Shown here piece after piece: positions 22,535-46,514 of a stretch of DNA of 64,000 bases. Numbering within the stretch: the first letter of the stretch is position 1; the number at the start of each line of letters is the position of its first letter. The notes below the pieces were generated by a model. The model had not been told where the DNA came from and did not search any database. It saw only the letters and a program-made list of their open reading frames with translations. Position numbers and translations under genes: made by a program. Origin of the DNA: a bacterium UBP16_UBA6123 (GTDB taxonomy: Bacteria; Muiribacteriota; UBA9980); contig DIVV01000128.1 of the NCBI GenBank assembly GCA_002423385.1, positions 87 to 64,086 on the forward strand, given 5' to 3'.

Positions 22535-22580
22535 AAGAGCCAGCCACTGGATTTGAACCCGCGGCCCCAGGGTTTACGAT
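22535..22580 (-). repeat. Diverged 3' half of a tRNA-Thr gene (putative att-type direct repeat of tRNA-Thr at 46442..46514)
   Basis: gccagccactggatttgaacccgcggccccagggtttacga aligns with gccaaccacgggagtcgaacccgcgacctgcggtttacga of the intact tRNA (about 80% identity from the 3' end through the anticodon), in the same orientation. Confidence 0.5.
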
Positions 22581-23012
22581 TTTGATTTTCGGAGTTGGGT
22601 CAAGTTGGGTTATCTTTGAAAGCCTTTTTTTATCAACGGTTTTATTTTTTACCGTTTAAGTCTGATTAGCGGTCCTTAGGTCTAATTTTGTTAAAAGTGG
22701 TGCCAATTTGGTGCCAAGTTCGATTCAGGTTTTAATAGGGTTTTCAAGGCAAGCGCTTTAAAAACCTTTTATATGTTGGTATTTTCAATAAATCAGTATC
22801 TTCTTTAAGAATTTTTAAGCCTTTAATTCGAAAGCCTTTGTTCATATGTTTAACTTGTATATATACATACTAAAGACAAGATATTACATTTCAGTTTTTT
22901 CCTTGTTTTCCATTATTTACAGCCATGATGAAAGGTATTGCTTAAACTAAAAATATTTGTTATAATAAGTATATATACAAGTTAAAACGAAGGCGGCAAA
23001 GGAAAACGAAAT

Positions 23013-23888
23013 ATGGCTTTATCAAGGCTCGAAGCGGCTAAATCAAATATATTGGAATTTTTCGAATCACAGCCCGAAACCATTTTTAAGCGGACTGCTA
23101 TAGAAAAAATATTTAAAGATAACTTTAAGACCTGGAACCTGGCACACACGATAACCGTCCTTAAATTTATAAATTTTTTAAAGGAACACGGAAAACTTCG
23201 TGAGTTGACGTTTAAGTTTCCCATACAAAAAATCGTCAGATACGTCTGGGGCGGAACACCCTCCTTATACCAAATCGCCTCGACATTTTATCCTGATTCT
23301 TACTTCACCCATTATACGGCGGTTTATTTACACGAACTTACGGACCAGGTCCCCCGGTCCGTCTATATCAACTTCGAACAGCCCGCTAAAGCCTTCCGCG
23401 ACAGCGAATTAGTCCAGGAACGAATCAACCACGCCTTCACCAATAAGCAACGGATAACCAACAATTTCGCCGCTTATGAAGAGTTTAAAATTTATTTATT
23501 GAACGGAATGTATACGAAAAAGACTGGCGTTATTGAAATGACCGGCCCGGATGGTGAAAAAATATCCGTCACCAGCCTCGAACGAACGCTAATCGACATA
23601 ACCGTCAGGCCAGCCTATGCCGGCGGAGTGTTTGAAGTTTTACGGGCATACAAGGCCGCTCGGGAGCGCGTATCGGTTAATAAACTCACGGCTATGCTCA
23701 AACGGCTGAACTACGTCTATCCCTATCATCAGGCCATTGGTTTTTATCTTGAAAAAGCCGGCTACAAAGAAACGCAAATTAATCTTCTGAAAAAATTCGC
23801 CATAGAATTTGATTTTTATCTAACGCACCAGATAAAAGAAAAAGGGTACTCGAAAAAGTGGCGGTTATATTACCCCAGGGGCTTCTAA
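23013..23888 (+). CDS. Orphan AbiEi-like antitoxin-family protein (AbiEi_3/4-like C-terminal domain)
   Basis: 291 aa; SLYQIASTFYPDSYFTHYTAVYLHELTDQVP and SLERTLIDI motifs typical of AbiEi-type regulators; no cognate nucleotidyltransferase downstream. Confidence 0.4.
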   Translation: MALSRLEAAKSNILEFFESQPETIFKRTAIEKIFKDNFKTWNLAHTITVLKFINFLKEHGKLRELTFKFPIQKIVRYVWGGTPSLYQIASTFYPDSYFTHYTAVYLHELTDQVPRSVYINFEQPAKAFRDSELVQERINHAFTNKQRITNNFAAYEEFKIYLLNGMYTKKTGVIEMTGPDGEKISVTSLERTLIDITVRPAYAGGVFEVLRAYKAARERVSVNKLTAMLKRLNYVYPYHQAIGFYLEKAGYKETQINLLKKFAIEFDFYLTHQIKEKGYSKKWRLYYPRGF

Positions 23889-24128
23889 TTTATCCGCCAT
23901 GGCGGCCACGTAATCGAAATAATAGTCGAAATCTTTAAGCACGGCGCTTTTTTTAACCGTGTCTTTAAGCGAGCTATAGTCCTGCTCGTGATATGACCTG
24001 TATTCTTTTATTTTGCCGATAAGGGCCAGAGGGACTTTCTTAGCGCCATAAGCTCGTCATCCGAAACCATGGCTATTATCACCAGATTTTTTATGTGGTC
24101 GAAAGTGCTTATTTCCAAAACATTGCCT

Positions 24129-24425
24129 CTAATCAAGATTTTTGATTTTATTTTTAGTCCCGCATACCGGACATTTATAAATATTTTTCCACTTCTTTTT
24201 AAACCGCAATCCGCTGTCGTTAGAACTCCTGGAACCCCGATGATAAGTCACAAGGCGTCCATCGAACGTTACATCTTCCACGAGGTCGCATCCGGCGCAT
24301 TTTATGAGCTCGCGTTCATCCATAAACAAACCAAGTTTAGCCGCTTCTTTTTGAAGTGCGGCTATTCGCCTCGCCAGTGGCAGAATACTTGAAAGGAGTT
24401 CGTCATGCACTTTTTTCTTACCCAT
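24129..24425 (-). CDS. Small zinc-ribbon protein, hypothetical
   Basis: 98 aa with CAGC...CPVCG; 49 nt downstream of the AlbA_2/HATPase gene on the same strand. Confidence 0.3.
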   Translation of the reverse strand: MGKKKVHDELLSSILPLARRIAALQKEAAKLGLFMDERELIKCAGCDLVEDVTFDGRLVTYHRGSRSSNDSGLRFKKKWKNIYKCPVCGTKNKIKNLD

Positions 24426-24474
24426 CGATTTACCCGCCGGAAAATATTATTTGAGCTCCAGGCCTATCAAAAAT

Positions 24475-26025
24475 TCACGAGATAACTTTTTTACCTTTGT
24501 CGGTCGTAACATATTTTTGTTTGGAACTGTTGGGTTTATCAGGCACGGTTAGTTCGAGCAGGCCATCATCAATCAATGGGACGATATATTTATTCCTGAA
24601 CTTAGTCCTATTATTTAATTGAAACAGCGACATTATTTCTACCATCGACCGTGGCTGAACGCAACATTTAAGGATTTCAAGAGATTCCGAACTTAGTCCC
24701 AACTTAGTCCCAACTTGGTCCCGACTTGGTCCCGACTTGGTGCCGACTTGATGCTGACCGGGTACCAACTTAATGACCGAACGTTTTTCTTCCATCGGGA
24801 ACGTCATCTTGAAATAATAATTAGCGACATTATTATCGATAACCGGCGTCTTATAATTCAGCTGCTTCCATGCGCTAAAAATCTTAAGCATTCCACTGCC
24901 GGCGGTTTCGGCAAATCCTACCATGCGAAAAAGTTTTGCTATCAAGGGATTACGAGGTGCAGTGGCCTCGTTGCTTATTATTTCTTCGACGGTCTTGGGT
25001 GCAGCGCCGGCGTTGTAGGTCTCGATTCTATCGTTAAAAATTCTCATTCTGGCCTGGGTATTGTCGAAGTAGTCACGATGTATTAAAACATTGACCAGGG
25101 CCTCGCGCATGGCAATCACGATAGGAACGTTCTCGGTTCTGGTTATATTGTCAGGTTCCATCATGAAGGGAATCTCGACCTTGCTTTTTATGTAGTTCAT
25201 AGCCTCATAGAAGGTCTGGAAGAGATTGACTTCATAAATCTTCCGGTCATCCCAGCGAATATCAGGAAACCCTTTTTCACGGGAACGTATCAGGTAAATG
25301 TCGAACTCATAGGCCGGAAAACGACTGCGGATACTATCTTCCTTCCCGAATACAAGAAGTCCGGCCATGGTCAGTTCTTCCTTGCCTGAAACCGGATTAA
25401 CTTTCAGACATCCGAGCTTCATAAGCAGTTCCGCCGTTTTTAACTTATGAAAGAGGCTCTCGGGTAGTCTTAATTCAAGCAAATTCTTATATTCTGATAC
25501 TGTTTTCGAATCGATATCCTTGACGCCGTATCCTTCAAGTATCATAGAATCGGAAGAAAACTCTGACGCCTCACGCAACATCCGGTTAACTTCCTCACGG
25601 CTGCATTTATAGTCGCCGCTGCCGCGCCTTATGTATGTATTGCGGATATCGCCGCCGAAGTAAATCGGCTTACAGTTTCGCGGCATCGAGTTTATGTGGA
25701 ACAGCAGGACCTTCTTGCCATCGAAGTCAAGAATATGAGCCTTAGAGGACAGCTGAATATTGAACTTTTCACCGCGCAGAGTTGAAAGAAAGTCATTCTG
25801 AAGCTTTTCGACGTTCTCGACACCGGTAATCTCGAACTTGCCTCCACCATTATCCTTAATACCGAATACAAGATTGCCGCCTTCGGTATTTGAAAATGAG
25901 CTGACGGTTTCCCAGGCGCTCTTCGGCACTTCGTTTTTAGCAGCTTTAACTTCGAAGTCTTCCCATTCGTGCATTTTAAGACGTTCGAGTAAGACTTTCT
26001 TTTTTAAAATGGCGGATATTGGCAT
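24475..26025 (-). CDS. Schlafen-like AlbA_2 + HATPase_c_4 + C-terminal wHTH protein (RecG-C-terminal-like putative regulator/ATP-binding protein)
   Basis: N-terminal ETVSSFSNTEGGNLVFGIKDNGG (AlbA_2), central VNVLIHRDYFDNTQ...ETAGSGMLKI (HATPase_c_4), C-terminal wHTH-like tail; contains a 12-nt tandem repeat at 24688-24785. Confidence 0.6.
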   Translation of the reverse strand: MPISAILKKKVLLERLKMHEWEDFEVKAAKNEVPKSAWETVSSFSNTEGGNLVFGIKDNGGGKFEITGVENVEKLQNDFLSTLRGEKFNIQLSSKAHILDFDGKKVLLFHINSMPRNCKPIYFGGDIRNTYIRRGSGDYKCSREEVNRMLREASEFSSDSMILEGYGVKDIDSKTVSEYKNLLELRLPESLFHKLKTAELLMKLGCLKVNPVSGKEELTMAGLLVFGKEDSIRSRFPAYEFDIYLIRSREKGFPDIRWDDRKIYEVNLFQTFYEAMNYIKSKVEIPFMMEPDNITRTENVPIVIAMREALVNVLIHRDYFDNTQARMRIFNDRIETYNAGAAPKTVEEIISNEATAPRNPLIAKLFRMVGFAETAGSGMLKIFSAWKQLNYKTPVIDNNVANYYFKMTFPMEEKRSVIKLVPGQHQVGTKSGPSRDQVGTKLGLSSESLEILKCCVQPRSMVEIMSLFQLNNRTKFRNKYIVPLIDDGLLELTVPDKPNSSKQKYVTTDKGKKVIS

Positions 26026-26063: not shown

Positions 26064-28469
26064 TCAGTTTTTAGTTAAATTTTTATTTTGGGAAGAGGTT
26101 GAATCATAATAATCATTTAACCACTTAGGCCAAGGCTGAATTTTAAGATACTTCTTTTGAGTCCATTCACAAAGCGGACTAATATTTTGCCAATATAAAC
26201 GCCTTTTTAAAAATTCAGGCTGGTCATTGAGGCTTAACGTCAGTATAGTTTTATTTAAAAACAATTCTTCGCCAGTCAAAATTATTACGTCGTTATAAAG
26301 TTTAGTCTGCTTAAATATATTTCTGTTTAAATTAATAAATTTTTCAAGCAACTCTATTTCTGTTGAATTTAAATTACTTCCTAATTTGGCAAAAACGACA
26401 GTAACTCCGGGAAAACAATTAACTATCGTTTCCATTCGCGAAAAATCATCTTGAGTAAATTCATTATAAGATTTACATTCAACAAATAAGGTATCATAAT
26501 GATTTTCTTCTGAATGCATGTCGGTTTTCACAAACATAGCTAGGTCAACTTCAAAGTTAATTTTTTTATCTTTATTCTTTAAAATTGTTCCAATTATAGG
26601 GGTAGTCTTAAGTTCCAAAATGCTTGAAAAAAACCTTAATGCTAATAAAACAGACAAAGCACCATCAGATTTTTTTATATCGCTAAAAGGGCCGATAACG
26701 CGATACGACCATTTAACATCTTGGGGAGAATGGGATGGTATTTCAAATCTATCTAAGCAATTCGGGCATTGAACTTCATAATCAAAAGTTTTTAATGAAT
26801 GCCAACCACGCTTGCTGCAATGCGGGCATTGGATTTCAACTCCTAACTTTATTATATTCATTTTAATTAAGTCTTGAATTATAACTTTAGGATTATAATT
26901 TTTACTATCGCGACTATTATAGTTTTTGAATATCTTCCCCAACAGTTCATTTTTGCAATTGTTTTCATGATTGTATATCTTGTTAAGTTTCCCATTAAGG
27001 CTCTCTGCATTACAACTGGTTTCCGAAACGTCCGTCAATAATTTGATTAAATCACTTTTAGCTAAAACTGACACTTTATGTAAAGTGCCGACCTGCTTTA
27101 GCATTTGCTTGGCGCTCTTACCTGCTGACGAAAAATCACAATTCCAGTCTCTGCCTCTAAACCAATTCAAAAATATGCTCTCAGAGCTAGGAATTTTCAT
27201 TTCAATTTCTGAATCTAATCGATTTACAAAATATGATATTTCACCTGAATTTTTGACCAAATATTTATTATCAAAAGATGAGAAAAAACTAAGACCATAA
27301 GTATTTAAAGAGCGAGGTAAAACTTCAGGAACTAAAAAATCATCATGATGAATATTTAGTTTGAAATCATTCGAACAATAAATCGGCCGATATTCTGAGT
27401 ATCGATTGATAAAACAAGGCAATAAAGGAGTGATATTTATTGATGAATGGTAATCAGAAAAACTTTGATTTTTATTATCTACTTCGAATCGAGAAAAATT
27501 ATTATTATCTTTATTTATACAAGGAAAAAATAGTTGAATACCAACATCAACCTGAGGTGAAATAGAATTATAATAAGATTTAAATAAACCTGCGATATGC
27601 TTAAGAATTTTATCATCCGAAATTGAACGACTTTTTATAATAAAAACATGGCAACGAACATTATCAGTAAAGAAATCCGGGACATATGCCTTGCAAGCAA
27701 AATCCGCATATTTTTTAATATCGTCATCTGAAAAGTTACTTGGAACAGGCCAGATATTAATTCCTGTTGCACGCAAATTCCAAAAATCAATAATATCGGA
27801 ATAATTTTCTTGGTCAAGCAAATAAAAGTAGTTGTTATGAACTCCATTCTTCGAAAACCTTTTGATATTGAAAGTATTAAGGAATAAGATATAATTATTT
27901 CTCGCTGCGTGCCACTTATAAAACTCATTACTTAAATTCTTTGGACTCTCGGGAAAATTTTGAACGATTCCTTTTAATAATGATTTTTCATTTTCAAACG
28001 CAAGTTTTCCAAATAATGCTGTTAAAAATAATTCATTTTGAACATCAAAAATTGGAATTATCATTTTTTCATACTGTTGTCTCGCATTATCTAATAAATA
28101 GTCACTTATTTCTAAAATATTGCATCCATAAATATTTGTATTTCTGTCAATTAATTCCGAAGAATCAATAATTTTTCGGCTTCCGATTTCAAAGTTTATT
28201 TGGTCAATATCACCAAATTTCACAATAATATCCGGATCAAATGCTTCGATATAGCCCGAAAGAATTTTATCAATATCTTCTACGTCAAAATATTTGTCAC
28301 GCCAAATTTCTGGGATACTATTATAAACCGGAATTATCGGATTATAAATGCCTCCCCAGAGCAATGTATTTATATTTATAGCTTCCAGCAAGACCTTTTT
28401 ATCGCCTGGCGGAACTAAAAAAGCAAATCTCAAAGGTCTAAGAGTTATATCAATGTTTCCATTGGCCAT
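26064..28469 (-). CDS. Large hypothetical protein (801 aa) with paired CxxC zinc ribbon and possible C-terminal PD-(D/E)xK-like motif
   Basis: CPHCSKRGW...CPNCLDRF; near the C-terminus VKTD...(15 aa)...FVECKSY. No P-loop. Very AT-rich. The start lies 4 nt after the stop of the 343-aa gene. Confidence 0.4.
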   Translation of the reverse strand: MANGNIDITLRPLRFAFLVPPGDKKVLLEAININTLLWGGIYNPIIPVYNSIPEIWRDKYFDVEDIDKILSGYIEAFDPDIIVKFGDIDQINFEIGSRKIIDSSELIDRNTNIYGCNILEISDYLLDNARQQYEKMIIPIFDVQNELFLTALFGKLAFENEKSLLKGIVQNFPESPKNLSNEFYKWHAARNNYILFLNTFNIKRFSKNGVHNNYFYLLDQENYSDIIDFWNLRATGINIWPVPSNFSDDDIKKYADFACKAYVPDFFTDNVRCHVFIIKSRSISDDKILKHIAGLFKSYYNSISPQVDVGIQLFFPCINKDNNNFSRFEVDNKNQSFSDYHSSINITPLLPCFINRYSEYRPIYCSNDFKLNIHHDDFLVPEVLPRSLNTYGLSFFSSFDNKYLVKNSGEISYFVNRLDSEIEMKIPSSESIFLNWFRGRDWNCDFSSAGKSAKQMLKQVGTLHKVSVLAKSDLIKLLTDVSETSCNAESLNGKLNKIYNHENNCKNELLGKIFKNYNSRDSKNYNPKVIIQDLIKMNIIKLGVEIQCPHCSKRGWHSLKTFDYEVQCPNCLDRFEIPSHSPQDVKWSYRVIGPFSDIKKSDGALSVLLALRFFSSILELKTTPIIGTILKNKDKKINFEVDLAMFVKTDMHSEENHYDTLFVECKSYNEFTQDDFSRMETIVNCFPGVTVVFAKLGSNLNSTEIELLEKFINLNRNIFKQTKLYNDVIILTGEELFLNKTILTLSLNDQPEFLKRRLYWQNISPLCEWTQKKYLKIQPWPKWLNDYYDSTSSQNKNLTKN

Positions 28470-28473
28470 ATTT

Positions 28474-29505
28474 TCATTCCATCCAATGCCTTGAAGGGGA
28501 TGATATTTTTTTCCCCCTCACAAATTTTAAATGTAGAGCTCTTTTAATCTTAACGTTAAGGAGTTTCATTGCGGACACACTTTTCGAAAGATTGATAATA
28601 TCACTTTGAGATTTTATTACTTTAGTAAGGCGACATATATTATAAAGAATATTAAAAAGAATTTGGTCTGAATTCGCTAAATCATCTGAGTTAATATCCT
28701 TATACTCGCCCGTATGAACGTATTTACATCTTTTCTTGTATAAGCCATCCATAAGTTTTGCCCAATATTCAGTTTCATTATTTGTCATCCATCCAAACAT
28801 CCCAACAACATTATCAATAATATCATCAATTTTGGAGGATAATAATGATTCAATAGCAATCATGTTATATAAAAATGAATCGTGAATTTTATGTGTAAGT
28901 TGACTTTTACCCGCTAAAATTGCAGCATTTCTGATTGAAAATTTCCAATTTTCATTTATAGCGCCGAAATCTTTATTTAATATTTTAATTAAATATGGAA
29001 AAAAATGATTTTTAATGTATTTGGCCCATTTATTATCAAGTAAATATTCACAAGTTGGAAAATGTATGCCCTTGCTTTCAAATAAATCTTTTTGAATATC
29101 GTAACATAAAATTTCATCCTGCAAATTAAGTGTTGCATCAGTATATGGATTGCCAAAAAAATATCTTCTTCTTCTATCTACTCTAAAAAATTGCGAAGAA
29201 GCTAAAATAAAAACAGAATCTTCAATTTGTTTAAACTCTCTGTCGAGTGATACAAGACCGTCATTGTTAGTTTTTATTATCGCATATGTTTCTGCTTTGC
29301 TAAAAAATTTATAGTTAAATATTTTCATCCATTTTTGTTTTTTTACATAAGATGAAATAGGGCTTTTAAATCCTATTTTGTTTCTGATACGCGATATTTT
29401 GTCCGCTGATACGAAACGGACTTGCTCTATCTGATATTCACCTTTTAACTCTTCAGAAATCTTTAAATTATAAATTGGAAAACACAATATCCATTTATTT
29501 GCCAT
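28474..29505 (-). CDS. Hypothetical protein (343 aa) with HEPN-like R-x4-H motif, possibly Abi-like
   Basis: LYKKRCKYVHTGEY matches the Rx4-6H HEPN signature. Start ATG is 1 nt after the brxL stop. Very AT-rich. Confidence 0.35.
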   Translation of the reverse strand: MANKWILCFPIYNLKISEELKGEYQIEQVRFVSADKISRIRNKIGFKSPISSYVKKQKWMKIFNYKFFSKAETYAIIKTNNDGLVSLDREFKQIEDSVFILASSQFFRVDRRRRYFFGNPYTDATLNLQDEILCYDIQKDLFESKGIHFPTCEYLLDNKWAKYIKNHFFPYLIKILNKDFGAINENWKFSIRNAAILAGKSQLTHKIHDSFLYNMIAIESLLSSKIDDIIDNVVGMFGWMTNNETEYWAKLMDGLYKKRCKYVHTGEYKDINSDDLANSDQILFNILYNICRLTKVIKSQSDIINLSKSVSAMKLLNVKIKRALHLKFVRGKKISSPSRHWME

Positions 29506-34196: not shown

Positions 34197-34854
34197 ACCA
34201 TAGCCTTAAAGTCTCTACAAATTTATTGAAAGCCCTATCTTGACAACCATTTACGCTAACTTTTTCGGCAATTTCTTTATATATCGAGGAAGAGCGTGGC
34301 TTTTTGATTTTTTGCAATACCGCTTCAAGAGCTTCTTTAGGGCGTTGAGGCTTAATTTGCTGTAAATTTTTAATGAATCCTTCATTTAAGAGCCATTGTT
34401 GTAATCCGACTGGCTGATTTCTCCAGCCGATAATTCCACTTAAACAAGGCGAGTTACTCCAAACCCAATTTTCAAGTTCAGGGTAAATAGCAATTACTTC
34501 TGAACGGTCCGCCCAGCCATTTTGCCTTAGTTTCACCTTGATTTTTTCTTCAATTTCTTCCACACTTTTATCTTCACTTCCACTCCCTTCATAGTCAAAT
34601 AGCATTAAAGCATATTTATATCTTGAAGAAAGAGGCATTAAGAAATCAACCCCATTTTTACAACATCCAGGGTCATGCCCCGGATGAGTGAAAATATCGA
34701 ATTTATCTCTGGCAATTGATATTCCAAGCGATGTTTGCCTATTTAATAACAAACTATTTATTGATTCTTTCATCGTATTATCTGCAACAAGAACAACAAG
34801 TTCTTTTTCTTTCTCGACAGGTAAAGCAATACCTTTTTGAAAAATTTTTTTCAT
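34186..34854 (-). CDS. Hypothetical 222-aa protein, partner of the upstream AAA ATPase (possible DUF4276/RloB/Toprim-like effector)
   Basis: Start ATG shares one nucleotide with the ATPase stop (TAATG at 34852-34856); overlaps pglZ start by 11 nt; no confident motif match. Confidence 0.35.
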   Translation of the reverse strand: MKKIFQKGIALPVEKEKELVVLVADNTMKESINSLLLNRQTSLGISIARDKFDIFTHPGHDPGCCKNGVDFLMPLSSRYKYALMLFDYEGSGSEDKSVEEIEEKIKVKLRQNGWADRSEVIAIYPELENWVWSNSPCLSGIIGWRNQPVGLQQWLLNEGFIKNLQQIKPQRPKEALEAVLQKIKKPRSSSIYKEIAEKVSVNGCQDRAFNKFVETLRLWFER

Positions 34855-36110: not shown

Positions 36111-36164
36111 CCTCTAAAACTAACTTTTAAAATATGGCATTATAATTACCTTAGAACCTTATTA

Positions 36165-36920
36165 TCATTCAAGCATTATTCCAAAACATTTTTCATATTC
36201 TTTTAAAATGTCTTTATGTTGTTCGGCCATAATCTGATTATATTCTTGCTGGCGCTCGTATTCTATCAGATTCATTTCATTATCAAGCATTTTATCCAAT
36301 TCATGTTCTAAAATTAAAAACTCATTTTCAATATCTTTTTCAGCATGCAAAGTATTAATACATGTTTCAAAAAACAAATATATTTCATCCATTATGTCTT
36401 TAAAGTTTTCGATGTCAATCCATTGTTCATGATTTATTACCATATTTAAATGCTTATCGAAAGGATACCTGAAATAAAATGAATTTTCATCCTTAAGCGA
36501 AAATTCATTGATGTAATTTTCCGCCACATCAATATCTACATCACATACCTCATTATTTTTCAATATCTGCTTTACTTTTTGTTGCCAAACTTTATTGATA
36601 TCATGACTAACGGCTTTAATAAATTTTATTTTATTTTCAGTGGACTCATTGGAAAAAACAATATAAATGTACTTTAATACTAATTCCAAATAGTGCCTAT
36701 ATAAGAAGAGAACTGGATATATCAAGGTGTCATAGGATTTTGAACTATCATCGTTCAATATTTTTTCAACCAAAGCATCAGCACCATTTTTATACCCTAA
36801 ATAATATCCCATCAATCTCAATTCTGACTTTCCCCAACCAATCTGACTTAACTTCGTTGAGGGCCTGGTCTCAAAAAGACTTTTTCGTTTTTTAAAAATT
36901 TGTATGTGGGTTATAGTCAT
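36165..36920 (-). CDS. Hypothetical 251-aa protein translationally coupled to pglX
   Basis: ATGA overlap with pglX stop at 36917-36920; AT-rich; no recognisable domain. Confidence 0.35.
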   Translation of the reverse strand: MTITHIQIFKKRKSLFETRPSTKLSQIGWGKSELRLMGYYLGYKNGADALVEKILNDDSSKSYDTLIYPVLFLYRHYLELVLKYIYIVFSNESTENKIKFIKAVSHDINKVWQQKVKQILKNNEVCDVDIDVAENYINEFSLKDENSFYFRYPFDKHLNMVINHEQWIDIENFKDIMDEIYLFFETCINTLHAEKDIENEFLILEHELDKMLDNEMNLIEYERQQEYNQIMAEQHKDILKEYEKCFGIMLE

Positions 36921-39900: not shown

Positions 39901-40420
39901 TTGAATCGTCAATCTTTTCAAACATAAAAGGCATCCAGCTATGGAGCTGATTGCACTTGGCGATTATAAGCATTCTATAAAGTTCTTCGGTCCTGGATTC
40001 ATCCTTTAACTTCGCTACCTTCGCAGAATCGATGCCAGGTAGGTCAAGCGATTCGGCATGAATGATAATATCCGGGTCATGACGGCCTTCGGTGCTCGAT
40101 GACAGGACACGCTCGATATATCCGTTGCACTCCATGAAACGCAGCGCGATAAGCCTGTTAAACCAGGTATAAGCTACTTCTTCAACAGCCTGCTCGAACC
40201 CCTTTGATTTAACGGAGTTATTAAGGTTTTCCCATTTAACTTTTATCTGTCGATTGTAAGTTTTGCCGTTAATCGTTATCGAATCACCAGTAGTAGTGAC
40301 CGTTTTAAGATTCTGAGCGGCATCTTCCGTAATGCTATAAAAGTGCGCCCTGGTCTTTATCTGATTTATGAGCTTCTGTCTGGCGCTTATGGCAAATCTT
40401 TTCAATATCGACGTATCCAT
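36917..40420 (-). CDS. pglX: BREX N6-adenine DNA methyltransferase PglX
   Basis: 1167 aa; AYTWFNRLIALRFME, FLDPACGSGHILVYAFD (motif I) and VVTNPPYVG (motif IV). Confidence 0.85.
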   Translation of the reverse strand: MDTSILKRFAISARQKLINQIKTRAHFYSITEDAAQNLKTVTTTGDSITINGKTYNRQIKVKWENLNNSVKSKGFEQAVEEVAYTWFNRLIALRFMECNGYIERVLSSSTEGRHDPDIIIHAESLDLPGIDSAKVAKLKDESRTEELYRMLIIAKCNQLHSWMPFMFEKIDDSRDYTELLLPDGLLNEGSIVRDLVSEIPEEDWKNVEIIGWMYQFYMFERKDELIKAKKKYKNNEIPTVTQLYTPDWMVRYMVDNTLGRLWLEAYPDSNLRSKMEFYIEPRNLTDEEKKEIKANAFNSIKPEEIKFLDPACGSGHILVYAFDLLFEMYKESGYIEREIPKIILKNNLYGLDIDERAIQLSCFSILMKARSKTHKIFDDNAYLNVHCFVETNNIDVNNSKVDLLIEKFLNSKTYGSLIKIPTLDLDSIEKALNQMESSGDMYQCLNSVILKKVTLIANILNSKYHCVVTNPPYVGNKYMNPEISMFLGKNYSNTKTDLFSAFIERCFDFSLESGYLGFVTPFVWMFIQSYEKLRKEIIGNKTILSLIQLEYNAFEAACVPACTYVFKNKMINVNGDYIRLSAFSGADNQPIKTREAIGNPDVTYRYSLKTSEFSKIPGFPIAYWISKKMINVFNDNTCLEKYSKAIIKGIFTGNNDRFIRYWYEVSKEDFDNRNWNKYSKGGAFRRWYGNFDSVIKWHNNAYELKKFDGSGLGASKYYNLHHIVWSKITSLNISFRYDDCDVFFDDASPSIVFNGDCDYYTLALVNSKIILEIVKILAPTLNYQAGEIKKIPVIFSSEHNQEIREICKKNIEISRHEWNSFEIAWDFEKHPFLNFSSIHTLSEIFENWKNFTEDQFNQLKKNEKELNRVFIDIYGLQDEMTPEVEDKDVTIRKADKEREIKSFISYAIGCMMGRYSLDKEGLIFAGGEFNKDNYKTYQVDDDGIIPVLGDAWFNDDIVARFIDFVKVTFGEKNLTQNLDFIAEALGKTSNESTDQKIRKYFLTEFYRDHLQTYQKRPIYWLFTSGKKRAFNVLIYMHRYTPSMLAKIRVDYLLQLLVKLETEKRTLENISQSGDAKQKKQNDKRLKEIDEHIVEIRKYDELLKHFADKKIEIDLDDGVAYNYTRFGNPEKGGGDLVYYDTYFKKDDLLKACEWKTKSAADSEGDDEQ

Positions 40421-40437: not shown

Positions 40438-43400
40438 TTAAACAATTTCTATGCGTTTATTATTTTTGATATGCTGTTCCAGATTGATTTTGAGTTCTGA
40501 AATATAATCTTCGACATCCTGTTGAGTCTCCAAATACATTTTTTTAGTCAGCGCTTTAGGGCTCACTGGTATGGTTTGCTTTAAAATAACCTTTTTTAAC
40601 TCAGGACCGGCACCGACGGAATTACCTCCAGAAGCTGGAGTAACATGTTTTTTTTGAATACTTTCAATTACATCATTGATAAACTGCTTGGAATCGGTTA
40701 TCAGATTTTTAATATCGCTTTGACGAGCAATCAGCGAATCAAGCGTCTGAGAGTTGTTTATCGAGCATTCCAGTATATCGAATTTATTAACGATGGGGTC
40801 ATTTGAAACATCCTTAACCCCTAATTCTTCCCAATTGATTATGAAATCTTTGCGTGCTTTACCTAGAGCACCTGCAACAACTTTCATCTTCTCTTCTATC
40901 AACCTGGAAATATGTTCTTTGATACTTTTACAAATATCCGATAACCTGGGAATATTTGAATACGGCGAAGGCATATTCAATATCTTTTTTAACTCTGAAA
41001 TCTTACTTAGTACCGCTTCATCGCTTATATGAATGATATTGCTTTCAGCTATTTCCCTGCATTCGAGGGCGTCATCGAAATGCCGGCGCTGCGAGGCAAA
41101 AAAACCTTCAATAACGCTCATGTCATCGATGTGGTCTTTAAAATCATCGAACCTGGAAGTTATGCAAGCGAATAACTCGGCCATATCCTTAATTTGAAGC
41201 GCATCTGATAGAAGTTCAATGCCGGCTTCAATCATTTTCAAGCAGGGGTAACGATTCTTTTCAGATTCGTATTTAAATTCTTTGAGCGCTACGTGCTTGC
41301 CCTCAAACTCAGTTTTCAGCAGTTCGAATAATTCCGCCTCTTCTGATGGAACATTTACCTTTTTAAAATAATCACGGTATAACTGCTGGGCGTTCAATAC
41401 ATCTTTCGGAGACGATTTCTTTTTAACCGATATTACATACTTTTCAAACATATTCTGATTAAGAATCTTATCGGCCAGGTCTTTTTCTGTGTGACTGACG
41501 GTTTCAGAATCTTTGAATAGAATTATTTCGCCTTTCCGCAAAAGGGTGGCCATTACTCCCGCTATATCGACATTCGGCCATCCATATGGCTTTAATGAAA
41601 ATTTTTCGTATAAGGTTTTCAATGTAACTTTAAAGTTTATATGAGCCTTCATATTGATGAAGTCTAACATTTCCTTTCTGGCAAGGCTGTTCACTTCCTT
41701 GCCGTCAAGGTCTGTCTGAACAAATTCATTCGCCGTCAGTATCCGTTTGATGTCTTTTTCGTCCTTCAAAAATAATGTTATATAAGATAATTTCGTATAG
41801 ACGTTAGTTATAAGTTTTTCAAGACCATTATTGATGGCCAGTTTCACATCCTTAAGCTTAACTTCGAATTTTTCGTTGCAGACGTAGTAATCTGCGCCGG
41901 CAACCAATCCGACCAGCATATTTTTGATACGGGTTTTGCGGTTGGTATTGTCCTGCGCCTTCGACTCAAGAATCTTTTTTATTGAATCGGGAAGAGACAT
42001 CGAATTCTTTGTCCTGATATATTTTTCAGTTTTTAGCATCTCCGAAATTTCATCTATAAAGAAGCTGTCTCTGGCTATCTTAATCAGAAGTGTCGAATTA
42101 TCGGCAGTTTCATATAAGCATTTAAGGTCGTTAAATAACTGATAGTCATCATGATGCGGGGTAACGATTTTAATCGTGATGTCATTCTGCTGATGACCGT
42201 GCGCCACATCATCAACTAATCTATTAAATGAATAATCTTTGATGTTTTTATAACGGTATTTTTTATCCGAGTAAACCTCATTCCACATCAAATCATTAAT
42301 ATAGTTGGTGACTTCGCGTTCATCGTAAGTCACCTTTTTAATTTCTCTGCTTACATCCTGTTCTTCATCGGTAAGGAAGTAGTATTCATCGTTATTACGC
42401 TGAATCAGAGTCTGTTTTTCAAGCCGGTCGAGAGCGGCCTCGATGTTTTTTCTTAACTGGAGCTTGTCCTGGTCAATTTCGGAGCATGAAAGCGTCGTAA
42501 TATTATCAATGTTCGGCTTTATCTCTTTTATGTATTTAATCATGAACAGGGTCTTTAAAATTTCGACGTCAAAATCCTTAAGTTTCGAATTGCCGGCGGC
42601 CTGCATGATAACGCGCTTAATAGCGGCATCCAGAAAACCTTCTATGGCCGAATAAAATGTGTAGAACGGAACCAGGATGTCGGGCGTTCTGTCCTTGTAA
42701 ACACACGCGGCAACCTGGAACGAATCGAGCATCGAGCGTTCGCCCTGCGAGAGGTGCTTGCCTGACGCTCCGGTTCGCCTTATGGCTTCGAATACCCTTT
42801 GAAGAAGCGTGAACTGATAAGGAACGAACGGGTATGCAGTAACGAAATCTTCCGACGAACTATAATTCTTAAGCTCAACCGTAGTATTCTGAGAAAAGCA
42901 TAGCTGGCTCTTTAAGGTCGGTTCCTTTTCCTTATAGATGTCCGTCAATTCCGAAACCGCCTCCGGCTTCTTAGTTAAAAGCCTTTTTTTAATTACCTCG
43001 TCGGTATTTGCGCTCGACAGATTCAGGCGAGTGTTAAAACGCCCCTGTATCTTGGAAAAATCCATATCTCTTATTCTTCCGACCAGCGAGTCAATATCGT
43101 CCTGAGCAGTAACGATAACCCAGGCATTGCCGCCGCACTTTATACCAAGGTCTTCGACGACGGTCTGTAAATTCAACATCAGGTTCGGGTTGTCGGCAAT
43201 ATACTGGCCGACTTCGTCGACTAAAAAGATTACCCGGTGGTTCTTTCCTTTAGCCTTAATGTGCTTACTGACGAGCTCCGCAAACTTGCTTATGGATTCT
43301 TTATACCAGTCATCCAATTTATCCAGCCACCGATGAGCCGATTCAGAGGTCATGCCGAACGCTTTAATGAGAGAATCGACGATTTCGTCCTGAATCAAAA

Positions 43401-44001
43401 AGAAGGAGGAACGAGATTCCTCCCATGACTCACCGTGAACCTGAGTAAATATTTTTTTAAATTCTTCGTACTTTCCTTCACCATCGAGCATTCTTTCGAA
43501 TTCGGCAACCTGAGGCAGCTCGCCGCAATAACCGCATTTTTCATTGAAGACTTTCAGAAATACGCTTACTATAGCATCTTTCTTGCTTTTAGAATCGGAG
43601 TCAGCCTTGCTGTCGATGTTGAAAAGAATGACGTCGGATGAAGACTGACTGCAAACTTTCAACTGCCCATAAAGCATCTGGTCGGCGACTTTATCCTTAA
43701 AGAAATCAAGCGCCTGCTTGCTTTTTGCCTCACGATTTTCGAGCAGGTAAGATAAAATTTTTAAGAGGTGCGATTTACCGGAACCAAAGAAGCCGCTAAT
43801 CCAGACGCCAATCTTGTCTGTAGGTCTCTGAAGCGAAGAGGTATAAAACTCATAAAATTTATGAAATATTTTATCGAGCTCTTTTGTAATTACATATTCA
43901 TCGAGTTCCTGAAATATGTTTTCGCTATCGTCCTGTCCGACCTTGATAACGCCGTTGATATTTCTCGTTATATCCTTCTGGAATAGGTCTTTAATATTCA
44001 T
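40438..44001 (-). CDS. brxC: BREX P-loop ATPase BrxC/PglY
   Basis: 1187 aa; N-terminal Walker A GFFGSGKSHLLKILSYLL; size and position between brxB and pglX. Confidence 0.8.
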   Translation of the reverse strand: MNIKDLFQKDITRNINGVIKVGQDDSENIFQELDEYVITKELDKIFHKFYEFYTSSLQRPTDKIGVWISGFFGSGKSHLLKILSYLLENREAKSKQALDFFKDKVADQMLYGQLKVCSQSSSDVILFNIDSKADSDSKSKKDAIVSVFLKVFNEKCGYCGELPQVAEFERMLDGEGKYEEFKKIFTQVHGESWEESRSSFFLIQDEIVDSLIKAFGMTSESAHRWLDKLDDWYKESISKFAELVSKHIKAKGKNHRVIFLVDEVGQYIADNPNLMLNLQTVVEDLGIKCGGNAWVIVTAQDDIDSLVGRIRDMDFSKIQGRFNTRLNLSSANTDEVIKKRLLTKKPEAVSELTDIYKEKEPTLKSQLCFSQNTTVELKNYSSSEDFVTAYPFVPYQFTLLQRVFEAIRRTGASGKHLSQGERSMLDSFQVAACVYKDRTPDILVPFYTFYSAIEGFLDAAIKRVIMQAAGNSKLKDFDVEILKTLFMIKYIKEIKPNIDNITTLSCSEIDQDKLQLRKNIEAALDRLEKQTLIQRNNDEYYFLTDEEQDVSREIKKVTYDEREVTNYINDLMWNEVYSDKKYRYKNIKDYSFNRLVDDVAHGHQQNDITIKIVTPHHDDYQLFNDLKCLYETADNSTLLIKIARDSFFIDEISEMLKTEKYIRTKNSMSLPDSIKKILESKAQDNTNRKTRIKNMLVGLVAGADYYVCNEKFEVKLKDVKLAINNGLEKLITNVYTKLSYITLFLKDEKDIKRILTANEFVQTDLDGKEVNSLARKEMLDFINMKAHINFKVTLKTLYEKFSLKPYGWPNVDIAGVMATLLRKGEIILFKDSETVSHTEKDLADKILNQNMFEKYVISVKKKSSPKDVLNAQQLYRDYFKKVNVPSEEAELFELLKTEFEGKHVALKEFKYESEKNRYPCLKMIEAGIELLSDALQIKDMAELFACITSRFDDFKDHIDDMSVIEGFFASQRRHFDDALECREIAESNIIHISDEAVLSKISELKKILNMPSPYSNIPRLSDICKSIKEHISRLIEEKMKVVAGALGKARKDFIINWEELGVKDVSNDPIVNKFDILECSINNSQTLDSLIARQSDIKNLITDSKQFINDVIESIQKKHVTPASGGNSVGAGPELKKVILKQTIPVSPKALTKKMYLETQQDVEDYISELKINLEQHIKNNKRIEIV

Positions 44002-44026
44002 GGTTCCTCCAGTAATAGGTCCTCTG

Positions 44027-44599
44027 TTATTTGACGAGCTGAAATGCTCGGTAATAATTGTCGTCTTTAATCAAACCGAAAAGCCTTAATTCCTTGCAGT
44101 CGTACATCCCCGGGAAGAACGCCACAAGCGGAATTTTATCAAACACATGATGAAGATTATTCAGGATGGTATGCGACCTGACGAGCGGCCAGGCAGAACC
44201 TATTCCCGTCAAAAAAACAAGTTTATGAGTGCTTTCATCATAGGCAGCTTTAATTTTATCTATAACCGCTTCCGGTTTTACTATCGGCTTCATTGCTTTG
44301 TGAAGGGCTTCTTTCCCCTTCTTTTTTTCCATATCAAAGCATTTGTCAAGCAGCTTTTTCTCCTGTAATATTTCGAGGATGATGTCGTATATGCTGATGT
44401 TTAAAATAACGACCTCGGGTCTTACTTTTTTCATCTGTTTAATAAGAAATTCGGTATGCCTGCGAACTATGCCTTCATATTTCGGCTCGTAGTCGAAGAT
44501 ATAAAAACCGATTTCATTCCCGATTCCTCTGTTCTTCAGGAAATTATCCTCTTTAATGATGTCTAGTATTTTATCGAGGCGCTCTTCAATCTTACCCAT
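44027..44599 (-). CDS. brxB: BREX protein BrxB (DUF1788-like)
   Basis: 190 aa; ...RGIGNEIGFYIFDYEPKYE... typical BrxB N-terminus; between brxA and brxC. Confidence 0.6.
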   Translation of the reverse strand: MGKIEERLDKILDIIKEDNFLKNRGIGNEIGFYIFDYEPKYEGIVRRHTEFLIKQMKKVRPEVVILNISIYDIILEILQEKKLLDKCFDMEKKKGKEALHKAMKPIVKPEAVIDKIKAAYDESTHKLVFLTGIGSAWPLVRSHTILNNLHHVFDKIPLVAFFPGMYDCKELRLFGLIKDDNYYRAFQLVK

Positions 44600-44604
44600 G
44601 CTCT

Positions 44605-45273
44605 CTACCTTATCAAAAAATATTTTCGATACGCATCATCACGGTTGCGCTGGATTTCATCTATCAACACCTTCGGCACCATGACGTTCAGTATCCGATA
44701 ATCGCTCTTTTCTTTTTTCAAGTACCCCGACTCCATCGCCATCTTCAACAATACCTGCTTAACCTTCTTCATAGTGGATTCAGTCCATGTGGTGACCTTA
44801 TCGTCCTGCTCCTTCTTATGCGCGAGCCAGATGTCTACTTCGGGAATCCTCAATAGCGGTTCCATTAACAGTAGCTTTTCGTATAGCAGCTCCGCCATGA
44901 ACTCCCGTAATAGCCTGTATCTGACTAGCAGGGCATAAAACAATATCAGCCTGGACGTTTCGGTATCAGACTCATCGATTAGTTTTACGCAATCAGCTGG
45001 AAGAAGGGATAAACGAAGTTTAACTTCGGCAAGATGCTTGAGGTTGGTGTTCTTTTTATCGCACTGAAAGGCATTGCGGTTAATGACTTCGTCGCGTATC
45101 GAACCGTCGTCATACCCTGCGCAAACCATCTTGACGACTATCCGCGTTTCCCGGTAGAGAAAGGGATTGCCGGTCATGGTCGCCGTATATTCAGTGATTT
45201 CATTAGTTTTCATAACAAACACCTTCGCAATTTCTATTGGGAATATTATATTATAAATAAGCTTATTTATCAA
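44605..45273 (-). CDS. brxA: BREX protein BrxA (DUF1819-like)
   Basis: About 200 aa, first gene of the operon; true start probably the internal Met at about 45213 (MKTNEITEYTATMTGNPFLYRETR). Confidence 0.55.
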   Translation of the reverse strand: MINKLIYNIIFPIEIAKVFVMKTNEITEYTATMTGNPFLYRETRIVVKMVCAGYDDGSIRDEVINRNAFQCDKKNTNLKHLAEVKLRLSLLPADCVKLIDESDTETSRLILFYALLVRYRLLREFMAELLYEKLLLMEPLLRIPEVDIWLAHKKEQDDKVTTWTESTMKKVKQVLLKMAMESGYLKKEKSDYRILNVMVPKVLIDEIQRNRDDAYRKYFLIR

Positions 45274-45302
45274 TAAAAATTTTCTGTCACGAGGTATCCA
45301 CT

Positions 45303-45770
45303 TTAGCAGGCGAGCTTATCCAGAGCGTCGGCTAATTTAATCAGCTTAGCGGAGTATGCCAGATGCTTAATGACGGCATCCAGGTCGCGTGAGGCTTTAG
45401 GAGCCGCAACCTTAACAGCGACTTTTTCTTTTCTCGACTTGCCGGCTCTGGTGGCCCTGGTGACTACGAGCTTAGATGAGACTTTGAACTTGCGACCTTC
45501 AGGCTTAACCTTTTTAGTTTTAACGGCCTTTTCTTTTTTTACTTTTTCGGGTTTCTTATCACTGCCGGCGGAAGTTAAAACCGCTTTCTTCAGCTTCGGC
45601 CGTCTCTTAACTTTAGGAACGTTTCCGAACTCTTCCTTTATTATGGAAGCTATAGTCGAGCGGCGCTCGTCGGTAAATTCGACTTTACCGGAAAATACTT
45701 CTTCTGGAAGTCCAAAGAAGGTCTTTAACGAACCCGTAACTGAGAAGGGCGTTATCTTTAAAGAGCCCAA
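45303..45770 (-). CDS. Lysine-rich histone H1-like / basic DNA-binding protein
   Basis: 155 aa; central KKxK/AKxK low-complexity region (about 35% Lys) flanked by short structured ends; immediately upstream of brxA on the same strand. Confidence 0.4.
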   Translation of the reverse strand: MGSLKITPFSVTGSLKTFFGLPEEVFSGKVEFTDERRSTIASIIKEEFGNVPKVKRRPKLKKAVLTSAGSDKKPEKVKKEKAVKTKKVKPEGRKFKVSSKLVVTRATRAGKSRKEKVAVKVAAPKASRDLDAVIKHLAYSAKLIKLADALDKLAC

Positions 45771-45879
45771 GACAGTTCACTCGAGACGGTATCTATAAGT
45801 CCGCTATAAAAACACCTTAAAACGGCCTTTAAAACCCGCATAAACATATTGCGAATTTTCGGAAATTTACCTTTTTAGA

Positions 45880-46266
45880 ATGGACTCATCTATACCTGAG
45901 CCCATAATAGGATTATTAGAGCAGTATCGAATGGAGCAGAACGGACACAGGGAAAAGGTAGGCTCTTTATGGCACGCGAGTGACCTTCTCTTTACTCAAT
46001 GAGACGGAACTCCGATGTATCCGGACTCCGTATCAAGATGGTTCGGCCGCCTGATTCGGGCGCACAACCTGCCTCACATCCGCTTTCATGACCTACGGCA
46101 TACTGCGGCCTCGATGATGATATCGAAAGGCATCGATATCAAGACCGTCAGCGGCATTCTGGGCCACGCCGACATCAAGACCACGCTTAACATATACGCC
46201 CACGTATTCGATTACAAGAAAGCAGAAGCCGCCGAAAAGATGGCGGAGCTGATAAAATTATCTTAA
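45880..46266 (+). pseudogene. Tyrosine recombinase/integrase C-terminal fragment with in-frame TGA
   Basis: ...LEQYRMEQNGHREKVGSLWHASDLLFTQ*DGTPMYPDSVSRWFGRLIRAHNLPHIRFHDLRHTAASMMISKGIDIKTVSGILGHADIKTTLNIYAHV (R...HxxR...Y catalytic region). N-terminal domains absent; TGA at 46000-46002. Confidence 0.6.
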
Positions 46267-46399
46267 CTGAGCGGGCGTGAAATAACTCGTCAAAAGGCCA
46301 TTTTTAAGACATCCTCAAAACCGTTGAAAATCAATCACTTTCAAAGCGTGGTCCCCAATTTGTGCCCAATTCCCAAAAATTATTAAAAAAAGAGTTTCG

Positions 46400-46437
46400 T
46401 ATAAAAACCAAAAACCCCCGCTTTCGCGAGGGTTTTG
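46400..46437 (-). terminator. Rho-independent terminator downstream of tRNA-Thr
   Basis: Hairpin ACCCCCGC-TTTC-GCGAGGGT (one mismatch) followed on the minus strand by UUUUUGGUUUUU. Confidence 0.45.
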
Positions 46438-46441
46438 TAGA

Positions 46442-46514
46442 AGCCAACCACGGGAGTCGAACCCGCGACCTGCGGTTTACGAAACCGCTGCTCTACCAAC
46501 TGAGCTAAGTTGGC
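46442..46514 (-). tRNA. tRNA-Thr (anticodon CGU)
   Basis: GCCAACTTAGCTCAGTTGGTAGAGCAGCGGTTTCGTAAACCGCAGGTCGCGGGTTCGACTCCCGTGGTTGGCT folds as a cloverleaf with 7-bp acceptor, GTTCGACTC T-loop and anticodon loop TTCGTAA. Confidence 0.85.

Follow-up and report, generated by a model that had tools for sequence, protein, structure and literature searches.

Is the segment of about 24 kb that separates an intact tRNA-Thr gene from a partial copy of it an integrative element that entered the chromosome at that gene, and, if so, can it still leave? The segment is part of a 64,000-nt stretch of DNA (the window; contig DIVV01000128.1 of assembly GCA_002423385.1, positions 87 to 64,086, forward strand), and all coordinates given here are window coordinates. 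The original prediction named four elements, that is, the tRNA, an integrase fragment, a tRNA-like copy, and a set of BREX genes, and all four were located at, or a few bases from, the positions it gave. In our reading, the segment is probably foreign DNA inserted into tRNA-Thr(CGU), that is, an integrative element that is bounded by attL and attR, carries BREX, and later lost its integrase. Its interior is almost entirely one 21-kb co-directional block, with 13 closely spaced minus-strand genes between the two ends. The GC content of the island genes (29-46%, compared with ~42-50% in the core flanks) makes the island mosaic, not uniformly different from its flanks.

The two ends of the island

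The tRNA-Thr(CGU) gene (46442-46514, minus strand) is intact, as predicted; Rfam (65.6 bits) and ARAGORN (46440-46515, minus strand) agree, and its 3' end faces the island (lower coordinates). At the distal end, a fragment of the tRNA-Thr 3' half (22536-22580, minus strand) has the same orientation as the tRNA and spans the sequence from the anticodon loop (TCGTAAA) to the 3' end. The prediction had described this copy as ~80% identical to the tRNA and ~24 kb away from it; the alignment gives 33 identities in 42 positions (79%) with the window tRNA and 84-85% identity with the tRNA of eight relatives. The local-alignment scores (22 against the window tRNA, 28 against that of the relatives) exceed the best scores found anywhere on either strand of 20 block-shuffled windows (12-18).

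The longest block of identity between the two tRNA-derived segments is a 9-nt core, CGCGGGTTC in the tRNA sense (GAACCCGCG on the plus strand), located at 46459-46467 in the tRNA and at 22555-22563 in the fragment. The tRNA and the fragment are reciprocal chimeras, with sequence exchanged around this core. On its 5' side, the window tRNA is the same as the tRNAs of the eight relatives and the fragment differs (CCCTGGGGC against CCGCAGGT); on its 3' side, the fragment tracks the relatives (2 mismatches in 19 positions), and 6 of the 19 differ between the window tRNA and the fragment. The T-loop (TTCGACT) and trailer of the window tRNA are unlike those of the eight relatives, with the differences confined to the sequence 3' of CGCGGGTTC. 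A reciprocal chimera around a core is the expected product of attB x attP recombination, so the attL/attR signature that had been predicted emerges strengthened from the alignment, as it does from the arm motif shared by the two ends (see below); the two differences between the fragment and the relatives' tRNA 3' of the core require that some decay be assumed.

In the mechanism that we propose, a lambda-type tyrosine integrase of the element would have recombined attP with the tRNA-Thr(CGU) gene, with strand exchange inside CGCGGGTTC, that is, in the 5' strand of the T-stem and the first bases of the T-loop. Sublocation classes for site-specific integration into tRNA genes were reportedly described by Williams in 2002. 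The attP would have brought its own slightly different tRNA-like 3' segment, which would now complete the working tRNA; the original 3' end would have been displaced by 24 kb, surviving as the 22536-22580 fragment. In these terms, the tRNA may be read as attL (a native 5' part and an element-supplied part 3' of the core) and the fragment as attR. The putative attB reconstructed in this way is ...GCAGGTCGCGGGTTCAAATCC(C/A)GTGG(T/C)TGGCTCTTATAAACTGATTAAAGG, the putative attP is ...CCGAAAATCAAAATCGTAAACCCTGGGGCCGCGGGTTCGACTCCCGTGGTTGGCTTCTACAAAACCC, and the sequence expected 3' of the tRNA at an unoccupied site is TATAAACTGATTAAAGG.... Because both junctions are legible as reciprocal chimeras, the exchange can be pinned to 9 nt without an empty site.

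The sequences just inside the two ends resemble integrase arms. The integrase-proximal (P') arm (46267-46441) contains a terminator-like hairpin (~46410-46436) and, in a motif scan, a paired TTGG motif (46354-46369); it is conserved with, and matches (local score 111), the sequence downstream of the tRNA in locus L003, a relative with an intact integrase at the same tRNA. The distal (P) arm (22581-22760) has paired TTGG motifs at 22595-22609 (plus strand) and 22702-22717 (minus strand) and includes a 58-nt imperfect inverted copy of the P' arm (22586-22643); it resembles both the P' arm and the L003 arm, with scores that none of 500 shuffles reached. The motif TTGGS-N5-7-TTGGS is present just inside both ends and is conserved beside the intact integrase of L003; three of the five such sites in the 64-kb window are within 190 nt of the two junctions. 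Judged from sequence, these motifs are likely to be integrase binding sites, and the core is likely to contain the point of exchange.

The distal end adjoins other defense genes. Inside the island, an AbiEi-like 291-aa protein without a toxin partner is encoded at 23013-23888 (plus strand; Pfam AbiEi_1; PADLOC AbiEi, E 1.5e-22), preceded by a 46-nt imperfect inverted repeat (22849-22986). Outside the island, to the left of attR, genes for an AbiEi_4 antitoxin of AbiE (21814-22410; Pfam and PADLOC) and an AbiEii nucleotidyltransferase (20653-21804; Pfam E 8.3e-38, PADLOC E 3.5e-86) are adjacent, the arrangement that identifies an AbiE type IV toxin-antitoxin system. The variable region, with defense genes and gene debris, extends 3.3 kb past attR, to 19.2 kb; a search of 19.2-22.5 kb for an older second tRNA fragment gave nothing above the shuffle scores.

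The AbiE genes outside the repeat-bounded interval, together with the mere 79% identity to the window tRNA and the failure to find an unoccupied site for comparison, are what might be expected if the fragment were not an att site at all, that is, if it were a chance match, or a pseudo-tRNA left to decay after a tRNA gene was duplicated long ago, in a chromosomal defense hot spot that was filled in some other way. We consider this highly improbable, however: the fragment scores above every shuffle, holds nothing of the tRNA upstream of the anticodon loop, takes part in the reciprocal chimera pattern, and is adjoined by cognate arm motifs. We continue with the fragment as attR.

The integrase remnant and the tRNA-Thr hot spot

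The tyrosine integrase next to the tRNA is a pseudogene (45727-46266, plus strand; Pfam and tblastn). When the intact 385-aa integrase of L003 is used as the tblastn query, its residues 238-260 align with 45727-45795 and its residues 261-385 with 45889-46263, on the two sides of a 93-nt insertion (45796-45888) that has no second copy in the window or among the relatives' loci compared (L001-L096); positions 46003-46263 correspond to positions 102-170 of the 172 in Pfam Phage_integrase (E 1.1e-16). The prediction placed a C-terminal fragment with an in-frame TGA at 45880-46266; the fragment and the stop are as described, and the start is revised, because the remnant begins ~150 nt further left. 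The TGA (46000-46002) stands where L003 has TGG (Trp). Recoding of TGA was rejected as an explanation, because TGA ends 9 of the 34 long ORFs in the window and the ortholog has TGG.

[quoted passage not shown] The truncation, the insertion, and the nonsense codon bear out the predicted death of the integrase. The search for an excisionase that had been proposed as a check yielded no homolog in the window (tblastn, nothing better than E ~1), and no intact integrase is present within the 64-kb window. With the integrase disabled in these three ways and the excisionase absent, the island should not be able to excise by itself, and we infer that it is now fixed.

The relatives identify the kind of element that uses this site. 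In every relative whose contig runs past tRNA-Thr (L002, L003, L091), the site holds an integrase that belongs to the same broad family. L003 and L097 have, at the same tRNA, an intact orthologous integrase, an HTH_17 excisionase, and a DUF2779 gene (the L097 contig stops 23 nt after the integrase gene); L002 and L091 have other integrases of the family, whose members are mutually 38-48% identical. tRNA-Thr is, then, a hot spot, which at least three distinct integrases, all of one family, use in related strains, and this explains why assemblies break there: the contigs of six relatives end within 0-80 nt of tRNA-Thr, which suggests strain-variable content.

An unoccupied tRNA-Thr site was sought with a genome scan using the right-flank gene, a metagenome scan using the left-flank PpiC-like gene, and the homologs of the ankyrin and right-flank genes with their context; none was found, and the relatives compared carry different elements (L002, L003, L091) or break at the tRNA. 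Synteny is gone in the distant relatives (L004-L006, L084, and L096), which have no tRNA-Thr at that place. In Kapaibacteria and Ignavibacteria, accB-accC is still located 6-8 kb from the flank gene; these lineages were rejected for defining the site as too remote.

Fixation of the island could be challenged in trans, if the genome had a related integrase and excisionase at another locus or if an incoming element supplied them. Both arms retain their paired motifs and the 9-nt common core, and the same communities harbor several circulating integrases of this family; however, no intact integrase occurs in the 64-kb window, the core regions differ outside the 9-nt block, and the low mutual identity of the family integrases suggests different specificities. 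Excision in trans is accordingly an unlikely prospect, and we retain the reading of a fixed island.

A more serious question is whether the BREX genes arrived with the att ends. The gene block begins with a Lys-rich ORF of 155 aa (45303-45770, minus strand), which the integrase remnant overlaps and within ~40 nt of which it stops. This ORF is of doubtful status: it has no family match and its first 15 codons lie antisense to the remnant; it is annotated as a gene in JGI contig L081. The island retains no backbone gene of the kind found in relatives. That the integrase breaks off so close to the block raises the possibility that BREX was not the original cargo and was swapped in later. The att ends would then be real, and the BREX block would have replaced the backbone (integrase N-terminus, excisionase, and DUF2779) by later illegitimate recombination or cargo swap; alternatively, a pair of same-family elements would have inserted in tandem, with later deletion of the middle junction. 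The stop of the integrase at residue 238 and the overlapping ORF are consistent with such a composite history, as are the mosaic GC content (segments of 29-30% in a block of 35-46%) and the related elements themselves, which carry int-xis-DUF2779 and small unknown cargo and no BREX. In L089, a relative whose PpiC is 92.6% identical, Schlafen-type remnants like window positions 24122-24858 (inside the island) are located beside the ankyrin gene with no tRNA fragment, an arrangement not predicted by a simple single-insertion history. Against this, one internal deletion in a BREX-carrying element gives the same anatomy, and neither a third, internal att-like site nor a second tRNA fragment was found inside the island. 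We regard the composite history as a sizable minority possibility and favor the insertion of a BREX-carrying element that subsequently lost its integrase.

The BREX genes and their accessory genes

The prediction of a complete type 1 BREX system holds: all six genes are in one locus on the minus strand, full length and without internal stops. These are brxA (44605-45273; Pfam BrxA, E 1.2e-44), brxB (44027-44599; Pfam BrxB, E 2e-45), brxC (40438-44001; an ATPase with the Walker A motif GFFGSGKS and three Pfam BrxC domain families), pglX (36917-40420; the BREX-1 adenine methyltransferase, with NPPY at residue 470), pglZ (31554-34196; BREX-1 type A), and the Lon-like brxL (29507-31534; BrxL_N, BrxL_ATPase with E 1.3e-149, and Lon_C). 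PglX passes the NCBIfam model BREX_1_MTaseX (1321 bits, cutoff 500) and matches PDB 8C45 and 9EWZ with E ~1e-224; PglZ passes TIGR02687 (776.6 bits, cutoff 270) and matches Pfam PglZ; brxA, brxB, brxC, and brxL were identified by Pfam alone. By homology, N6-adenine methylation by PglX would mark the host DNA, and replication of unmarked phage DNA would be blocked. A BrxR-type regulator was not recognized in the locus.

Three genes, all on the minus strand, separate pglX from pglZ. The first, whose initial 4 nt overlap the pglX stop, encodes a 251-aa protein of no known family (36165-36920; GC 29%). The other two encode a MAD3-type ATPase (34854-36110; Pfam AAA_21/AAA_15; NCBIfam antiphage_MADS3, 499.9 bits, cutoff 420; PADLOC HEC-01A and mad3), with weak PDB similarity to PtuA and an OLD-family protein, and its MAD4-type partner (34186-34854; NCBIfam antiphage_MADS4, 213.4 bits, cutoff 160). 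MAD3 and MAD4 are accessory and are absent from some methylation-associated defense systems (MADS), and the detection model of the MADS authors makes MAD6, MAD7, and MAD8 mandatory (bioRxiv 10.1101/2023.03.30.534895); none of these three was found among the island ORFs scanned with NCBIfam and PADLOC, so the island does not qualify as MADS. The locus is a further instance of MAD3/MAD4 and other accessory genes wired into a type 1 BREX operon.

Three more minus-strand genes follow brxL. A 343-aa protein (28474-29505; GC 29%) has an RCKYVH motif (Rx4H) of the HEPN-domain kind and is possibly HEPN-like; an 801-aa protein (26064-28469; GC 30%) has a CPHC/CPNC zinc ribbon and a conserved D642...E664-C-K666 and is a possible PD-(D/E)xK nuclease. 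These two GC-poor genes follow brxL at spacings of 1 and 4 nt. The third ('gene A', 24475-26025; Pfam) encodes a 516-aa protein with Schlafen/AlbA_2, HATPase_c_4, and wHTH domains. Searches of families (Pfam and NCBIfam for the 801-aa protein), PADLOC, and PDB sequences gave no usable match for the 155-, 251-, 343-, or 801-aa proteins. The family of the 801-aa protein is nonetheless large (1795 clusters at 50% identity, E<=1e-3), with nearly all members ~800 aa, and some members also stand alone in viral or prophage contigs. Tentatively, the 343- and 801-aa genes may form an uncharacterized BREX auxiliary effector module, and the 801-aa family as a whole could be an unrecognized one of stand-alone anti-phage nucleases; this is a conjecture.

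Accessory genes of such classes are common and recurrent in BREX loci, and the Schlafen-histidine-kinase-wHTH architecture is a BREX-linked auxiliary (NAR 2026 survey, PMC12839542). The 'extra cargo' of the original prediction is present, and most of it looks like these known auxiliary types, so it is extra only in part.

Comparison with known systems

As in lambda-type integration into tRNA genes, transcription of the integrase runs towards attL, the tRNA regains its 3' part from the element, and the exchange appears to have occurred in a short common core with flanking arm repeats; it differs in that the putative exchange is in the T-stem/T-loop, yet the tRNA-like similarity of the P arm extends to the anticodon loop. 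Compared with the type 1 BREX systems of E. coli HS (BrxX, PDB 9EWZ) and Salmonella (PglX, PDB 8C45), the locus has the same six genes in the canonical order; unlike them, it has three extra genes between pglX and pglZ and three after brxL. In common with the surveyed auxiliaries (PMC12839542), it has a dyad of an ABC-type ATPase and its partner within the operon and an adjoining Schlafen-histidine-kinase-wHTH protein, and the possible HEPN and PD-(D/E)xK proteins fall in the surveyed classes; the 251-, 343-, and 801-aa proteins, by contrast, fit no curated family.

Of 41 defense hot spots in E. coli, 18 are at tRNA loci, and BREX is among the systems found on islands of this type (Hochhauser et al. 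2023, PMC10121019). The island has what marks a tRNA island, that is, an intact boundary tRNA, a distal direct repeat, and an adjacent integrase, the last as a pseudogene alone. It shares its layout with the 'integrase-only' tRNA defense islands (PMC10121019), which likewise have an intact tRNA, an adjoining phage-type integrase, and a partial tRNA repeat at the far end, as well as anti-phage cargo and varied elements at one tRNA among related strains. It departs from them in that its integrase is a pseudogene, no unoccupied site was observed, and its host belongs to an uncultured lineage near 'bacterium ADurb.Bin243' and Candidatus Wallbacteria. As a defense island of a familiar type, the locus is clear but unexceptional, and nothing in it alters current understanding; it offers a clean, self-consistent case of a defense island apparently assembled, and then immobilized, in a little-known uncultured lineage.

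The two ends of the island

The one tRNA gene of the window is a tRNA-Thr(CGU) at 46442–46514 on the minus strand (ARAGORN; Rfam, 65.6 bits), with its 3′ end towards lower coordinates. The original prediction described an island (22535–46514) bounded by this gene and by a same-orientation, ~80% identical copy of its 3′ half, and both are present. The tRNA-like fragment lies at 22536–22580 in the orientation of the tRNA-Thr, spans the anticodon-loop sequence TCGTAAA to the tRNA 3′ end, and is identical to the window tRNA at 33 of 42 positions, with one gap. In a scan of both strands of the whole window, the fragment gives a local-alignment score of 22 with the window tRNA and 28 with the tRNA sequence common to relatives, above the best scores of 20 block-shuffled windows (range 12–18). 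Against all fetched loci (blastn), the sole matches of the fragment region were to tRNA-Thr genes, those of eight relatives (84–85% over 44–46 nt).

We aligned the window tRNA and the fragment with the tRNAs of four loci from related organisms (L001, L002, L003, and L091). On the 5′ side of a shared 9-nt identity block, CGCGGGTTC, the window tRNA is that of the relatives and the fragment differs, with CCCTGGGGC where the relatives have CCGCAGGT; on the 3′ side, the window tRNA differs (T-loop GACTCC, trailer TC) and it is the fragment that resembles the relatives (T-loop AAATCC, trailer CT; two mismatches in 19). Judged from the sequences, this reciprocal chimera has the form that B-O-P′ and P-O-B′ products should take; it confines the exchange to the block (46459–46467 and 22555–22563) and implies that the working tRNA is a hybrid, the 3′ end of which was brought by the element. 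In addition, one D-loop base at 46500 differs from all relatives (GCTCAGTTGG in the window vs GCTCAGCTGG); it sits in the native 5′ half, and integration does not account for it.

The arms adjoining the two junctions are also related. The 175 nt from the tRNA to the integrase stop (the P′ arm) are kept in L003 (local score 111), and P′-arm sequence occurs twice, once inverted and once direct, in the 200 nt on the inner side of the fragment, with scores matched by none of 500 shuffles. Common to the arms are paired TTGG(G/C) boxes spaced 5–7 nt; just five such pairs occur in the 64 kb, three of them at 22595, 22702, and 46354, and we read them as candidate integrase arm-type sites. The reciprocal chimeras and the arm sequence at both ends support the predicted attL/attR, as ends of one element family; in line with the junction pattern, the island most likely arrived by site-specific recombination.

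The integrase remnant and the same site in relatives

About 175 nt beyond the tRNA is the end (46266) of a plus-strand open frame with similarity to the C-terminal region of Pfam Phage_integrase (E = 1.1e−16). Using the 385-aa integrase of L003 as a tblastn query against the window, residues 238–260 are found at 45727–45795 and residues 261–385 at 45889–46263; a 93-nt insertion with stops (45796–45888) lies between them, and residues 1–237, including the SAM-like domain and the box I arginine, are missing. The insertion has no second copy in the window or among loci L001–L096. The in-frame TGA at 46000, a normal stop codon in this window, is TGG in the L003 integrase; the tblastn alignment thus bears out the decayed integrase that had been described, with this stop and no N-terminal domains. 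A search for an excisionase found no homolog in the window; because the integrase is broken and an excisionase absent, the island would now be unable to excise alone.

We scanned genomes with the conserved gene adjoining the tRNA, which encodes a bifunctional sugar-phosphate nucleotidyltransferase/mutase; by this gene, the window belongs to an uncultured lineage close to ‘bacterium ADurb.Bin243’ and to MAGs labelled Candidatus Wallbacteria. In L003, the flank protein of which is 88% identical to that of the window, the tRNA-Thr is followed by the intact integrase, an HTH_17 excisionase-type gene, and a DUF2779 gene. Integrases of the same broad family, 38–48% identical to each other, are present in all relatives with contig past the tRNA (L002, 403 aa; L003; L091, 387 aa, with an HTH_17 gene); this tRNA-Thr is an integration hot spot. 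Six contigs (L001, L007, and L092–L095) end in the tRNA or ≤80 nt after it, which points to strain-level variation in downstream content, and two alternative elements, L091 and L097, occur in the same metagenome. The comparison with related genomes yields different elements at the same tRNA and, among the relatives compared, no unoccupied site.

The region around the probable attR

A PpiC-like gene and an ankyrin-repeat gene (17432–19204, minus; 590 aa, hydrophobic N-terminus) adjoin each other in the window's closer relatives L087 and L089 (in L089, 92.6% and 70% identity, respectively). Because this pair is conserved, the variable region starts at about 19.2 kb rather than at 22.5 kb, with the ankyrin gene at its left edge. 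The interval from this gene to attR contains a complete AbiEi/AbiEii pair (Pfam, PADLOC), what is left of a second Schlafen/HATPase_c_4 gene (about 20333–20990), a 106-aa PLD-domain fragment (20095–20415, plus; PLDc_2, E = 3.4e−11) that looks like the debris of an earlier nuclease gene, and a consensus-like promoter, read from sequence, immediately following the tRNA-like fragment; a piece related to the PLD-domain fragment is found, inverted, at 7196–7321 of L089. The AbiEi/AbiEii pair, when it inserted, cut the Schlafen gene at its 5′ end, so the AbiEii ORF reads into it and covers an AlbA_2-like remnant, residues about 252–383 (20333–21804, minus), after which a HATPase_c_4 piece is frameshifted (20333–20863). 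On the island side of attR, an orphan AbiEi-like gene (23013–23888, plus) has no toxin gene; the 46-nt imperfect inverted repeat that precedes it (22849–22986; 74% complementary) could be an operator.

In the L089 contig, the 8.2 kb ahead of the ankyrin gene lack a tRNA fragment; the contig's remnants resemble window positions 20912–20965 (94%), 24122–24164 (95%), and 24483–24858 (67–74%). L089 thus has debris of sequence from either side of attR, and the remnants are better accounted for by repeated turnover at the locus than by one clean insertion. The second of these segments is AT-rich, 43 nt long, and lies at the end of a 98-aa zinc-ribbon-like ORF; its counterpart (L089 6309–6351) adjoins a decayed Schlafen-type gene, and no further copy occurs in the window or in loci L001–L090. 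Farther left, the window encodes a bacterial class A RNase P RNA (2485–2845, minus; 260.7 bits).

The BREX block and its accessory genes

A series of 13 minus-strand ORFs occupies 24475–45770, neighbouring ORFs being separated by −11 to +54 nt. Six of them make up the type 1 BREX gene set, arranged canonically (brxA, brxB, brxC, pglX, pglZ, and brxL). PglX scores 1321 bits with the NCBIfam BREX-1 methyltransferase model (cutoff 500), contains an NPPY motif, and aligns with the Salmonella and E. coli proteins of known structure (E about 1e−224); PglZ scores 776.6 bits with the BREX-1 type A model (cutoff 270), and BrxC and BrxL have Walker A motifs. With no internal stops in any of the six, the complete type 1 system predicted between the ends is indeed there. 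By homology, PglX would methylate a host motif and the BREX complex would stop unmethylated phage DNA, with the accessory genes as presumed back-up effectors. Upstream of brxA, a Lys-rich, low-complexity 155-aa ORF (45303–45770, minus) without a family match is a candidate gene or regulator; over its first 15 codons it runs antisense to the integrase remnant. The end of that remnant is no more than about 40 nt from the block's first ORF, which it overlaps, and no backbone genes of the relatives' elements are left in the island; BREX may be original cargo or may have replaced the backbone later.

Between pglX and pglZ (34186–36920, minus) are equivalogs of MAD3 (499.9 bits, cutoff 420) and MAD4 (213.4 bits, cutoff 160) and a 251-aa gene of no assigned family, the start of which overlaps the pglX stop (translational coupling). 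MAD3 and MAD4 are accessory in MADS and absent from some systems (bioRxiv 10.1101/2023.03.30.534895); the mandatory MAD6–8 did not turn up in the island's ORFs, so we regard the two as a borrowed module, not a MADS system. Directly after brxL are two GC-poor (29–30%) minus-strand genes. The first encodes a 343-aa protein (28474–29505) with an RCKYVH (Rx4H) motif and no family match; the second encodes an 801-aa protein (26064–28469) with a CxxC...CxxC zinc ribbon and D642, E664, and K666 invariant over 27 homologs. The 801-aa family has 1795 representatives at E ≤ 1e−3 (clusters at 50% identity), some standing alone in four viral contigs (IMG/VR), and no PADLOC or PDB sequence match; the window protein has no Pfam or NCBIfam match. 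The third gene after brxL, also on the minus strand, encodes a 516-aa Schlafen/AlbA_2-HATPase_c_4-wHTH protein.

The predicted extra cargo is present, and most of it resembles gene types described as BREX auxiliaries: recurrent effectors reported in or beside BREX operons include ABC-ATPase/nuclease dyads, stand-alone HEPN proteins, PD-(D/E)xK nucleases, and Schlafen-kinase-wHTH proteins (2026 survey, PMC12839542), and by these classes the accessory architecture is ordinary. As a whole, the original observation is confirmed and its interpretation supported with refinements. BREX-carrying, integrase-associated, tRNA-linked defence islands are already well documented (PMC10121019), and this locus is a further case.
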